Origin: Candidatus Iainarchaeum sp. | Lineage (GTDB): Archaea; Iainarchaeota; Iainarchaeia; Iainarchaeales; JAZDDZ01 | Reading direction: 5' to 3' | Assembly: GCA_043809245.1 (NCBI GenBank) | Contig: JAZDDZ010000049.1 | Coordinates: forward strand, 1-64,000 | DNA: 64,000 nucleotides | In this document: piece by piece, positions 1,727-42,385 of the stretch | Layout: each line of letters starts with the position of its first letter | Position numbering within the stretch: the stretch's first letter is position 1 | The notes under the pieces: generated by a model | The model's input: only the letters and a program-made list of their open reading frames with translations | Told to the model about the DNA's origin: nothing | The model's database searches: none | Made by a program: the position numbers and the translations under genes

Positions 1727-1864
1727 TTTACCACCTTAAAGTTAGTTATAAAAATACTTATGCCTTTCCAATATTTAAGTTATGGGGTAATACTAAAGTT
1801 AGTGGTGCATTTAACTAATTAGGAAAAGCGCCCGAGGGAGGACTTGAACCTCCGACCTGCCGGT

Positions 1865-1879
1865 TTCTGCCTGAACAGG
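1865..1879 (-). other. 15-nt canonical 37/38 tRNA intron
   Basis: Intron CCTGTTCAGGCAGAA; helix CTGT/GCAG with bulges TA^C and AA^A. Confidence 0.85.
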
Positions 1880-1886
1880 TAACAGC

Positions 1887-2176
1887 TACGCCTGGTTAAA
1901 GATTGTCGTGGAGTTCCCGGTGGCAGTTTGCGCAAACCAACAAAGTTTTGTCAGCCTCTTTCAATATTCTTTTCCAGCCCCTGTTGTAAATCAGGGAAAT
2001 CTTTTTCTCTTTTTCATCTTTGTGATGAAATTCAAGTGCCGCAATGCATTTGCTGTAACCGCAAATCTGGCATTTGCCGCCCTTTAGCTCCACCAGTTTC
2101 TTTTTGTATTTTCTCCGCCTTTCGGAGATATACTCTGCCACCTTCTTTTTGTCTTTCCAGACCATCTTAAAACCAA
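1887..2176 (-). other. 290-nt BHB tRNA intron at position 30/31 containing an ORF
   Basis: Central helix CGTC/GGCG, 3-nt bulges CG^T and TA^G, flanking helices AG/CT and TGGTT/AACCA. Confidence 0.85.
1896..2165 (-). CDS. HNH endonuclease (zinc-binding), tRNA-intron encoded
   Basis: CQICG...LEFHH...LVCANCHRELH motifs; basic N-terminal helix. Confidence 0.9.
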   Translation of the reverse strand: MVWKDKKKVAEYISERRRKYKKKLVELKGGKCQICGYSKCIAALEFHHKDEKEKKISLIYNRGWKRILKEADKTLLVCANCHRELHDNL

Positions 2177-2509
2177 CGGACGCTCTACCTGCTGAGCTAC
2201 TCGGGCATCCGCTGTCAAAGAATTAACTTTCAATACCTTTAAAACACTTTCACAAAATGAAAAAATCCAATAAAAAATTTTTCTGAAGAAACAAGATTTA
2301 ATAGAAAAAAAAATCAATTCTTAAAAAAGAAAAAGCACCCAAGAAAGGATATGAACCTTAAGGCAAGTTGCTACATAAGTTAATGTGTTTTTTCGCGATT
2401 TAAAACCCCCTTCCCCATTAACAATAGCTTTCCCTAAACCTTAATTAACCCCATTTTAACGAAAATAAGCCTTAATTAACCTTATTTTCAGAATTAGCTG
2501 CTTGTTAAG

Positions 2510-2993: not shown

Positions 2994-4076
2994 ATGAAGT
3001 CTTTAATCGAAGAAGCAATGGTGAAAACCGAAAAAGCCGAGGACAAACTCGAGGAATTCGGAACACCAAAAATAATGGTTATCGGAACAGGCGGGGCAGG
3101 ATGCAACGCAGTTAACCGACTGGCCAACATGGGAATCTCGGGAGCACAGCTTGTAGCGGTGAACACTGACAAGCAGCATCTCGCAATCATCAACGACGAA
3201 CTCACAAAAATCTTAATCGGAAAAAGCGTCACGCGCGGATTAGGCGCAGGCGGCTATCCTGAAATCGGCGCAAAAGCAGCAGAGGTAAGCAGGGGCGCTT
3301 TGGAAGAAGTGCTTCACGGCGTTGACATGCTGTTCGTTTCAGCGGGAATGGGCGGCGGAACAGGAACAGGCTCTGCACCGGTAATCGCTGAAATAGCAAA
3401 AGAGCAGGGAGCAATAGTAATCGCAATGGTTACATACCCCTTCGCTTTGGAAAAAGCAAGATTGATAAAGGCAGAAGCGGGAATCGAATCACTGAGAGAC
3501 GTAACAGACACGGTTGTTGTCATTGACAACAACAGGCTTGTTGAATTGGTTCCGAATTTGCCGATACAGGACGCATTCAAAGTCGCAGACGAAGTCACGG
3601 CAAGGACTGTTCGCGGAATAACAGAGACAATCACGCAGCCATCACTGATAAACCTTGACTTTGCAGATGTTCGCTCAGTAATGAGCAACAAGGGCTTAAG
3701 CGTTATCGCTGTCGGTGAAAGCAAGTCAGTAAACAAAGTGGATGAAGTTGTTGAAGACACTTTGAAGAACGCATTGCTTGACGTTGACATCGGAGGGGCA
3801 ACAGGCGCATTGATTCACATTACAGGCGGCCCGGAGCTCACACTCGGAGAAGCAAACGCTGTCGGGGAAATGCTCACAGAACACATTGACCCAAAAGCAA
3901 TTGTAATCTGGGGCGCAAGGGTCGATCCAACATTTGAAAACAAAATCGAGGTAATCAGCATCTTCACAGGCGTGCACTCTCCCTACATCAGGGGGCCGAA
4001 TGCACCCGAGTCCTCTTCAAGAGGCGGCTTAAGCAGCCACAGGGGAAGAAAAGACCTTGATTTGGCACACATCTAA
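2994..4076 (+). CDS. ftsZ: Cell division protein FtsZ
   Basis: GGAGCN, GMGGGTGTG tubulin signature, NLDFAD; start reassigned to ATG 2994 after the GGGGTGA RBS. Confidence 0.97.
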   Translation: MKSLIEEAMVKTEKAEDKLEEFGTPKIMVIGTGGAGCNAVNRLANMGISGAQLVAVNTDKQHLAIINDELTKILIGKSVTRGLGAGGYPEIGAKAAEVSRGALEEVLHGVDMLFVSAGMGGGTGTGSAPVIAEIAKEQGAIVIAMVTYPFALEKARLIKAEAGIESLRDVTDTVVVIDNNRLVELVPNLPIQDAFKVADEVTARTVRGITETITQPSLINLDFADVRSVMSNKGLSVIAVGESKSVNKVDEVVEDTLKNALLDVDIGGATGALIHITGGPELTLGEANAVGEMLTEHIDPKAIVIWGARVDPTFENKIEVISIFTGVHSPYIRGPNAPESSSRGGLSSHRGRKDLDLAHI

Positions 4077-42130: not shown

Positions 42131-42385
42131 TCAGTCGCCTTCAATTTCTTTCCTTAAGTCTTTAATGCTTGTGTGCCTATAGCCGTATTTTTTGAAGTGT
42201 TCTTGCTCTATTTTGAGGATTTTCCTGATATAACTTTCCTTTACTTCGGGCTCAACCTCGTTTTCGCCGTAATCCCCAATGAATTTGTTCAAAGCCTCGC
42301 TTTTGTCCTTTAGGTCATACTTTGCCTTTACAACAGTCAAAACCCTATTAGAATATTTGTTCAAGCTAACCCTTGCATCAACCAT
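42131..42385 (-). CDS. DUF2683-like antitoxin
   Basis: NRVL.VVKAKYDLKDKSEAL; directly upstream of the toxin. Confidence 0.8.
   Translation of the reverse strand: MVDARVSLNKYSNRVLTVVKAKYDLKDKSEALNKFIGDYGENEVEPEVKESYIRKILKIEQEHFKKYGYRHTSIKDLRKEIEGD

Follow-up and report, generated by a model that had tools for sequence, protein, structure and literature searches.

A predicted HNH endonuclease gene within a bulge-helix-bulge intron of an archaeal tRNA-Asn gene, with relatives in and beside the same gene in bacteria and phages

The interrupted tRNA-Asn gene and its reading frame

The stretch of DNA analyzed here (the window) comprises positions 1 to 64,000 of contig JAZDDZ010000049.1 from Candidatus Iainarchaeum sp. 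On its minus strand it holds a tRNA-Asn gene that is interrupted by two introns, the larger of which is almost filled by an open reading frame (ORF) for a small protein that resembles HNH endonucleases. The assembly holding the window (G000; 1.48 Mb in 55 contigs, 44% G+C) is 91.8% complete, and the window is its contig C49. The records of this group carry the name Candidatus Iainarchaeum or Iainarchaeota and belong to a DPANN lineage. The gene is made up as follows, with BHB standing for bulge-helix-bulge and lengths in nucleotides (nt) or amino acids (aa):

1829..2206, minus strand: tRNA-Asn(GUU) gene, 378 nt with two introns, from hand reading and ARAGORN on the in-silico spliced product
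2177..2206, minus strand: exon 1, 30 nt, tRNA nt 1-30, 90-100% identical to exon 1 of relatives
1887..2176, minus strand: intron 1, 290 nt, BHB type, at the non-canonical position 30/31
1896..2165, minus strand: HNH endonuclease ORF, 89 aa plus stop, from the ORF list, PHROG matches, conserved residues and an AF2 model
1880..1886, minus strand: exon 2, 7 nt, tRNA nt 31-37, with anticodon GTT
1865..1879, minus strand: intron 2, 15 nt, canonical 37/38 BHB intron, from hand reading
1829..1864, minus strand: exon 3, 36 nt, tRNA nt 38-73

When the three exons were joined in silico, ARAGORN called a 73-nt tRNA-Asn(gtt), and when intron 1 alone was removed it called the same tRNA-Asn with a normal anticodon-loop intron, which is intron 2. 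A preliminary description of this DNA, made from the letters and a list of ORFs, had reported a tRNA-Asn split at 30/31 by a 290-nt insert, and both this arrangement and its coordinates were confirmed. The same description had an 89-aa ORF filling 270 of the 290 nt, which the ORF list bears out (93% of intron 1; the start lies at intron nt 12 and 20 nt are non-coding), and a 73-nt tRNA-Asn with a U-C mismatch at 27:43 after removal of both introns, with which ARAGORN agrees. A mismatch at 27:43 also recurs in the relatives that were read. The unspliced gene was missed by ARAGORN in the window and by Rfam in the region, so that metagenome-assembled genomes (MAGs) with such genes appear to be without tRNA-Asn. 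It is the only tRNA-Asn gene that Rfam, ARAGORN and BLAST revealed in this 91.8% complete assembly: no second one was present among 38 Rfam tRNA matches or 25 ARAGORN calls, and a BLAST search of G000 with the joined exons gave no further tRNA-Asn and only a weak cross-match to tRNA-Ile. The possibility of a group I intron in the window was rejected, since positions 1500-2600 gave no match to the Rfam model RF00028 at E up to 10.

The ends of intron 1 can be folded into a splicing motif with the following elements, in which H is the central helix, h the outer helix and h' the helix on the intron side:

2179..2182, minus strand: central helix, 5' strand, tRNA nt 25-28, pairing with GGCG at 1889-1892
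1889..1892, minus strand: central helix, 3' strand, intronic GGCG, 2 nt before the intron 3' end
2176..2178, minus strand: 5' splice-site bulge, C29, G30 and intron U1
1886..1888, minus strand: 3' splice-site bulge, intron U and A, then G31
2170..2175, minus strand: helix h', 5' strand, intron nt 2-7, pairing with 1893-1897
1893..1897, minus strand: helix h', 3' strand, intron nt 280-284, pairing with 2170-2175
2183..2191, minus strand: outer helix h, 5' strand, tRNA nt 16-24, which lie in the D-loop and the D-stem's 3' strand, pairing with 1876-1885
1876..1885, minus strand: outer helix h, 3' strand, tRNA nt 32-37 plus the first 4 nt of intron 2

The predicted h-B-H-B-h' motif is strict and complete, with a 4-bp central helix between the 3-nt bulges CG|U and UA|G, an h' of at least 5 bp and an h of 8 bp; inside intron 1, further pairing joins the start-codon region to the stop-codon region. 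BHB cleavage takes place after the second bulge nucleotide, and by this rule both cuts would fall exactly at 30/31. Intron 2, by hand reading, has a BHB of its own with the central helix CUGU/GCAG and the bulges UA|C and AA|A.

We measured the conservation of the intron 1 motif on an alignment of eight related precursors, which is a small sample. Standard pairs occupied 100% of the cells of H and h' in all eight sequences and 95% of those of h, and pairing fell to 20-48% in slid controls with the partners shifted by 1-3 columns. Changes on both sides of a pair were seen in all three helices, namely in H at 27:C' (CG4/UG3/AU1), in h' at 34:321 (AU5/GC2/GU1) and in h at 16:340 (UA3/CG2/UG2). The three unpaired cells of h all came from one metagenome sequence (L020), in which a shifted register seems to pair by hand reading. 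The earlier claim that the intron ends form a strict BHB therefore holds, with helices conserved by compensatory changes across the eight relatives.

The splicing motifs of the two introns are mutually exclusive, in that helix h of intron 1 competes with the canonical BHB of intron 2, and every 30/31 intron that we saw, with or without an ORF, was accompanied by a 37/38 intron. Intron 1 can form its outer helix only while intron 2, which supplies 4 nt at its start, is still present, and the large intron is therefore probably spliced out before the 15-nt one. Of the host machinery, G000 has RtcB, and 53 of the 61 relatives that were searched have the splicing endonuclease EndA, encoded by one ORF whose length is about 170-200 aa among the rows listed.

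The 89-aa protein was matched by seven PHROG families annotated as HNH endonuclease, the best three with E-values of 1e-23, 4e-21 and 1e-13. Seven residues (C32, C35, H47, H48, N80, C81 and H82) were invariant in 40 homologues and two more (C78 and H86) were conserved in at least 90% of them; we take the two CxxC pairs to bind zinc, and the His-His, Asn and His to make up the HNH motif. An AF2 model built on the alignment of 40 homologues reached a pLDDT of 86 and a pTM of 0.71, and the top rows of a Foldseek search with it were mostly HNH nucleases (Cap5, T4 endonuclease VII, Gme HNH, Cas9 HNH and McrA). A PDB profile search returned the HNH domain of a group II intron maturase (E 0.0013) and McrA (E 0.05); NCBIfam models gave no match to the protein. 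From these sequence and fold comparisons we accept the ORF as a putative minimal zinc-bearing HNH nuclease. A tblastn search of G000 revealed no second HNH copy at a significant E-value. The wider family is large, with 18,926 cluster representatives at E up to 0.001, and among the best 150 representatives listed all but one were longer proteins (144-426 aa) that were matched in two or three stretches.

The archaeal ORF is under purifying selection. For nine archaeal ORFs, that is 36 pairs, the ratio of nonsynonymous to synonymous substitution rates (dN/dS) ranged from 0.08 to 0.20 in the nine pairs with an estimable dS. The stop codon of the window's own ORF lies inside intron 1.

Occurrence and forms among Iainarchaeota

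A match to the HNH protein was present in 11 of 215 Iainarchaeota genomes and absent from 204. In seven of the 215 (G000, G153, G082, G079, G087, G081 and G163, from families f1, f17, f12, f13 and f22) the gene sits inside tRNA-Asn at 30/31, always together with a 37/38 intron, and among the matches listed by BLAST of the whole gene there was no second tRNA-Asn in any of these seven. Another genome (G161, locus L008) has a free-standing HNH gene ~70 nt upstream of a tRNA-Asn with D-loop and 37/38 introns and none at 30/31. In family f9, three genomes gave distant matches, two of them full-length at ~130 aa (L009 and L010) and one short at a contig end; L009 and L010 were left out of the tRNA-linked set because no tRNA lies within 1.5 kb of either. 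The preliminary description had proposed to look for homologues in tRNA introns with a patchy distribution, and homologues do lie in tRNA introns, sporadically in the Iainarchaeota (these seven genomes) and also in the bacterial tRNA-Asn group I introns described below.

The locus can be followed between genomes by a conserved neighbor:

2994..4076, plus strand: ftsZ, marking the orthologous locus (tblastn; FtsZ of relatives 85-91% identical)

By tblastn, tRNA-Asn adjoins ftsZ in genomes with and without intron 1, and since both states have this neighborhood in common, the comparison concerns one orthologous site. With the whole gene as query, BLAST against the 215 genomes led to 23 further loci that were inspected. 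Seven of these hold an intron-less tRNA-Asn of 73 nt (72 nt in one), five have D-loop and 37/38 introns, one has the 37/38 intron only, and one (L192; genome G063 of family f12) has a 23-nt intron at 30/31 next to the 37/38 intron; the remaining nine are a different tRNA with anticodon GTA. Seven additional genomes seem to be intron-less, as judged from BLAST row spacing only.

Several of these loci look like stages of decay or loss. The 23-nt intron of G063 agrees with the ORF-bearing intron of the same family at 7 of its first 8 nt and at all of its last 13 nt (13/13), and this match at both ends makes it read as an ORF-deleted derivative. Genus g38 holds both states, with the HNH intron in one species (G087) and no 30/31 intron of any kind in another (G088), and the exons of the two are identical where both are present (the G087 contig is without the first 6 nt). 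Among metagenome relatives, L020 (65% identity) has the intron with a frameshifted ORF, and in L019 (71% identity) the HNH gene overlaps the beginning of a tRNA-Asn whose own intron at 30/31 measures 13 nt.

A further arrangement was seen at the same locus: in six genomes the ftsZ-linked tRNA-Asn (L186, L187, L189, L198, L207 and L008) has a different non-canonical intron, of 40-50 nt in the D-loop after ~nt 15, in addition to the 37/38 intron, and none at 30/31.

Relatives in bacteria and phages

To place the protein outside the Iainarchaeota, we considered 160 loci, made up of the 80 best metagenome contigs and the 80 best contigs of a one-genome-per-species set, by similarity to the window protein. 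The loci were classed with ARAGORN, with a profile of group I cores found by Rfam, and by in-silico joining at CTGT|...G|TA followed by ARAGORN. The classes were distributed as follows:

HNH inside a group I intron that splits tRNA-Asn(GTT) at 35/36: metagenome 32/80, genome 50/80
HNH immediately upstream of a tRNA-Asn whose group I intron lacks an ORF: metagenome 5/80, genome 13/80
HNH within 500 nt of an intact tRNA-Asn: metagenome 19/80, genome 3/80
Group I core nearby, exons not resolved, mostly contig ends: metagenome 2/80, genome 6/80
HNH in an archaeal BHB intron: metagenome 1/80, genome 5/80
Archaeal free-standing HNH upstream of tRNA-Asn: metagenome 1/80, genome 0/80
Other HNH context: metagenome 20/80, genome 3/80

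Over all 160 loci, 82 homologues lie inside a tRNA-Asn group I intron, 18 upstream of an ORF-less one, 22 near an intact tRNA-Asn and 6 in an archaeal BHB intron. The homologues borne by bacterial group I introns are 45-60% identical to the window protein, and their introns at 35/36 measure 520-620 nt and lie 5 nt from the archaeal site at 30/31; examples of bacterial tRNA-Asn group I introns are found in L124 (Woesebacteria) and L153 (Berkelbacteria). RF00028 scored above its gathering threshold in 16 of 18 bacterial loci tested and had no match in the two archaeal loci tested (L019 and L020). The named bacterial hosts are mostly Patescibacteria, also known as the candidate phyla radiation (CPR), together with some Omnitrophota, Planctomycetota, Bacteroidota and Pseudomonadota MAGs.

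Archaeal and bacterial genes resemble each other in the DNA that surrounds the two insertion points: GGTAGAGC is followed by five variable bases and then by R-CTGTTAA-Y-C, in a comparison of three sequence groups that excludes the HNH-bearing archaeal exons.

In the upstream class (18/160; for example L075, L112, L124, L148 and L173), the HNH gene lies 20-60 nt from tRNA-Asn, and the ORF-less group I intron measures ~175-230 nt in all but one locus; a free-standing endonuclease gene here adjoins a presumed target that already bears an intron. Free-standing members of the family were found 1-70 nt upstream of tRNA-Asn, and a tRNA lies no more than 500 nt away in 36 of the 45 loci classed as free-standing or 'other', mostly downstream and on the same strand. 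We also observed close homologues 1-15 nt upstream of tRNAs for Arg-CCT, Arg-ACG, Cys and Trp (metagenome loci L040, L067, L069, L046, L047 and L097), which suggests that sub-lineages of the HNH family may have specialized on other tRNA genes.

The phage collection contained 326 records with a homologue, at an identity under 60%. In the cultured cyanophage Synechococcus phage S-WAM2, an annotated 84-aa HNH endonuclease overlaps the start of tRNA-Asn-GTT, and in Klebsiella phage Muenster a tRNA-Asn lies 65 nt upstream of a longer HNH gene; the third phage record opened had no tRNA-Asn near its HNH homologue. The lineage thus falls in a large family of small HNH genes that are linked to tRNA genes, most of all to tRNA-Asn. 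Taken over archaea, bacteria and phages, this family has three genomic life-styles, as a free-standing gene upstream of the tRNA (in phage-like tRNA arrays and at two archaeal loci), inside group I introns and inside a BHB intron.

A tree was computed from 152 distinct proteins and 106 kept columns (IQ-TREE in quick mode, LG+G4). The duplicates of L002-L006, the fragment L012, the frameshifted L020, identical rows and matches spanning fewer than 61 query residues were left out of it. Nine tRNA-Asn-linked archaeal sequences fell on one side of a branch with an SH-aLRT support of 97, and the two free-standing archaeal copies (L008 and L019) grouped together (79) within this archaeal clan. Next to the clan stand long-branch loci of unclear context, and the tree fails to resolve 79 of its 149 inner branches; for these two reasons the naming of a donor or of a direction of transfer between the domains was given up.

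A probable homing element at tRNA-Asn and the alternatives

Since relatives of the nuclease occupy or adjoin this tRNA gene in bacteria and phages as well, the locus looks like a selfish element that is specialized on one tRNA gene across two domains. We think it probable that the HNH gene belongs to a homing-endonuclease lineage of this kind, which archaeal hosts would render harmless through BHB splicing and bacterial ones through a ribozyme. Its sporadic presence at an orthologous site, next to intron-less, frameshifted and ORF-deleted forms of the same site, fits what a homing cycle would be expected to leave behind. The preliminary description had likewise read the locus as a mobile HNH element made harmless by BHB splicing; the comparative evidence speaks for this reading, of which splicing, circularization and DNA cleavage are steps that we only infer. 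Its side idea, that the nuclease attacks viruses or att sites, found no support in any of our analyses.

In the mechanism that we propose, the pre-tRNA would be transcribed from the tRNA promoter, the archaeal splicing endonuclease would cut in both 3-nt bulges, and RtcB would join the exons and probably circularize the intron. Intron 1 would probably leave first and the 15-nt canonical intron 2 second. The template for the HNH protein would be either the precursor or the excised intron, which is probably circular, and the protein would nick or cut intron-less tRNA-Asn genes near the anticodon arm, after which repair from the intron-bearing copy would spread the element (homing). Over longer times the element would run the usual cycle of invasion, fixation, decay and loss.

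A number of observations weigh against this interpretation. For the protein, the Pfam HNH model scored 15.6 bits with a gathering cut-off of 21.4, AI2M-like_HNH scored 15.0 with a cut-off of 23, and all Foldseek E-values were 0.3 or more; moreover, the 89-aa protein has no separate DNA-binding domain with which it could read a long site. In five of eight archaeal introns (L003, L004, L005, L006 and L007) the ORF has no stop codon inside the intron, and a linear excised intron would therefore be a non-stop message; translation of these five would end 2-12 codons beyond the 3' splice site if the RNA is unspliced, or, if the intron is circular, 1-3 codons beyond the junction (22 in L007). For the RNA, the BHB is missing from the unconstrained minimum free energy fold (-129.0 kcal/mol) of the complete pre-tRNA, in which GGCG pairs with nt 29-32; the BHB-constrained fold, which contains helix h, lies 4.1 kcal/mol above it. 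No RNA run was found that matched positions 1600-2400 of the window, the two matching runs being DNA from sediment with 0.04-0.05 of the words each. No EndA gene turned up in the 91.8% complete assembly G000, whether searched with PF01974 and TIGR00324 or by tblastn with the EndA of five relatives; at least 10 other intron-bearing tRNAs were called in G000 by ARAGORN, which means that the host must splice, and the EndA gene is probably in the unassembled part rather than truly absent. In the wider family, the nearest tRNA of the 36 free-standing or other loci is Asn(gtt) in only 16, the remaining 20 being spread over 14 other anticodons (for example Cys and Arg), and the family is therefore not exclusive to tRNA-Asn. 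Finally, synonymous sites are saturated in 27 of the 36 archaeal pairs and the HNH tree roughly follows host families, two findings that leave room for old vertical descent with many losses.

Such descent is at the heart of the strongest alternative, an old, vertically inherited and immobile intron whose HNH protein is kept for a use of the host, either as a maturase-like help in folding or for the cutting of viral tRNA-Asn genes. Compared with homing, this view draws support from the purifying selection that persists despite the saturated synonymous sites, from a chromosomal position that is always beside ftsZ, and from archaeal HNH sequences that form one clan (SH-aLRT 97) grouped roughly by host family; by sequence, its nearest relative of known structure is the HNH domain from a group II intron maturase, which would suit a maturase-like role. 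We nevertheless consider it unlikely, because most genomes (204/215) have no HNH match and intron-less tRNA-Asn genes are common, because the frameshifted copy and the ORF-deleted remnant show that the gene is dispensable, and because one genus (g38) holds both states. Its homologues, furthermore, occupy the classic positions of homing endonucleases in group I introns and phage tRNA arrays.

A second alternative, to which we give somewhat less credence still, is that an HNH gene of the free-standing type came to be parked in a pre-existing 30/31 BHB intron, that its product cuts not the 30/31 insertion site but another site in or near the tRNA-Asn genes of competitors, and that it spreads by co-conversion of the whole tRNA locus. 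It differs from the explanation that we favor only in the position of the cut and in which came first, intron or nuclease gene. ORF-less 30/31 introns do exist (13 nt in L019 and 23 nt in L192), but the L192 remnant resembles a deletion derivative of an ORF-bearing intron and not its ancestor. Likewise, L008, L019 and many bacterial and phage relatives lie directly upstream of the tRNA and outside it, as does the bacterial HNH gene next to an ORF-less group I intron of tRNA-Asn in 18 of 160 loci, whereas the free-standing archaeal copies are nested, with a weak support of 79, within the intron-borne ones. The distance of 5 nt between the bacterial and archaeal insertion points (35/36 and 30/31) is a further point for parking. 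Very improbable, lastly, is a dead and unspliced tRNA-Asn whose working copy sits in the unassembled 8% of the genome: it would agree with the missing EndA, the 91.8% completeness in 55 contigs and the lack of an RNA run containing the locus, but the exons are intact and 90-100% identical to those of the working-looking tRNA-Asn of relatives, the BHB is kept by compensatory changes in eight genomes, no second tRNA-Asn is present in the seven intron-bearing genomes among the matches listed, and splicing is needed for at least 10 other intron-bearing tRNAs in G000.

Within the homing interpretation, a more specific scenario can be put forward tentatively, although we ourselves find it rather doubtful. 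The HNH lineage would have kept its tRNA-Asn target across phages, bacteria and archaea while switching its harbor from free-standing to group I to BHB, and the insertion of the nuclease gene would itself have created the 30/31 intron, its ends and the pre-existing 37/38 intron happening to form a BHB. Such an origin of the 30/31 intron would explain at the DNA level how non-canonical tRNA introns can arise in archaea, and would make the system a living test of the link that has been proposed between group I and BHB introns.

The element resembles several known systems without coinciding with any of them. In archaea, tRNA introns are usually regarded as short inserts without coding function, and there is no accepted account of how they arise and spread, above all for those at non-canonical positions. 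Protein-coding BHB introns are familiar from 23S genes, for example those of Desulfurococcus and Pyrobaculum with the enzymes I-DmoI and I-PorI. Passages in two papers describe many archaeal rRNA BHB introns as carrying LAGLIDADG genes (PMC4496867, PMC6125680), in agreement with the statement of the preliminary description that the classic protein-coding BHB introns are of the rRNA and LAGLIDADG kind. Intron 1 of the window is like them in being protein-coding and sporadic, in its homing-endonuclease cargo and in its presumed removal at a BHB by the tRNA splicing endonuclease. It is unlike them in that the host is a tRNA, the nuclease is an 89-aa HNH and not a LAGLIDADG protein, the ORF fills 93% of the intron, and the outer helix borrows from a second intron.

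A cyanobacterial group I intron reportedly encodes an endonuclease aimed at the anticodon region of a tRNA, and that nuclease belongs to a different family. Both systems combine an intron-borne endonuclease with a home and presumed target in the anticodon region of one tRNA gene, but the cyanobacterial one is bacterial with a self-splicing intron, whereas that of the window is archaeal and would rely on BHB splicing. The bacterial tRNA-Asn group I introns described above carry a homologous protein, interrupt the same host gene and are inserted a mere 5 nt from the archaeal site; they contain a ribozyme and measure 520-620 nt, whereas the window intron has 20 non-coding nt and no ribozyme. T4 SegB, as described in PMC2330249, is a free-standing GIY-YIG endonuclease in a phage tRNA cluster that promotes inheritance of its own tRNA region. 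The HNH family of the window likewise includes free-standing endonuclease genes among or beside tRNA genes; SegB, in contrast, is of the GIY-YIG type and not borne by an intron, whereas the window nuclease is an HNH protein inside one.

The hypothesis of Tocchini-Valentini et al. (2011) that BHB introns arose from group I introns, as summarized in a passage of PMC6125680, predicts related mobile elements at equivalent sites, with group I introns among bacteria and BHB introns among archaea. That hypothesis dealt with rRNA, and here the link is a common nuclease gene and not a common intron RNA. From the sequences compared, our data do not show descent of the window BHB intron from a ribozyme.

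The principle of a homing endonuclease hidden in a harmless intron is familiar. What appears to be new is the combination of a tRNA host, an HNH protein, BHB splicing that is interlocked with a second intron, and homologues that reside, in another domain, in group I introns of this gene. Full-text literature searches, with supplements and most subscription journals outside their scope, returned no report of a tRNA BHB intron in archaea that carries a homing endonuclease, nor any of a group I intron in bacterial tRNA-Asn. PMC8172020 mentions in passing that CPR tRNAs often have group I introns, and PMC6333295 lists HNH genes near archaeal tRNA clusters.

The homing interpretation would give the locus a wider meaning: a tRNA BHB intron would bring its own DNA endonuclease, and every stage of a homing cycle would be visible at a single conserved site. 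This interpretation also supplies a concrete mechanism, open to testing, for the gain and loss of introns in archaeal tRNA genes. It would also place one selfish gene under two unrelated splicing mechanisms, which bears on the relationship between BHB and group I introns, and because the same nuclease family occurs in bacterial group I introns and beside the gene in phages, a direct experimental comparison is possible. A site-specific HNH nuclease of 89 aa would rank among the smallest homing nucleases.

Outside the window, G000 contains one more locus at which an endonuclease gene is associated with a tRNA gene. On contig C10 (38843-40121; L209, 244-1522), a duplicated tRNA 5' fragment is followed by a 304-aa ORF with a helix-turn-helix domain and LAGLIDADG motifs (Pfam LAGLIDADG_3, E 1e-5), and ~50 nt beyond this ORF lies a complete intron-bearing tRNA with the same 5' end as the fragment. 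ARAGORN takes the whole region as one tRNA-Gln with a 1186-nt intron. From its sequence, this has the look of a further homing endonuclease, unrelated to the HNH gene, that is parked at a tRNA gene of G000. A few kb from it, at 42131-42194 and 48095-48147 of C10 (L210 and L211), there are partial tRNA-like matches below the Rfam cut-off that have a common start (a repeated 20-nt stretch) and a T-arm, and that could be tRNA fragments left by integrations.

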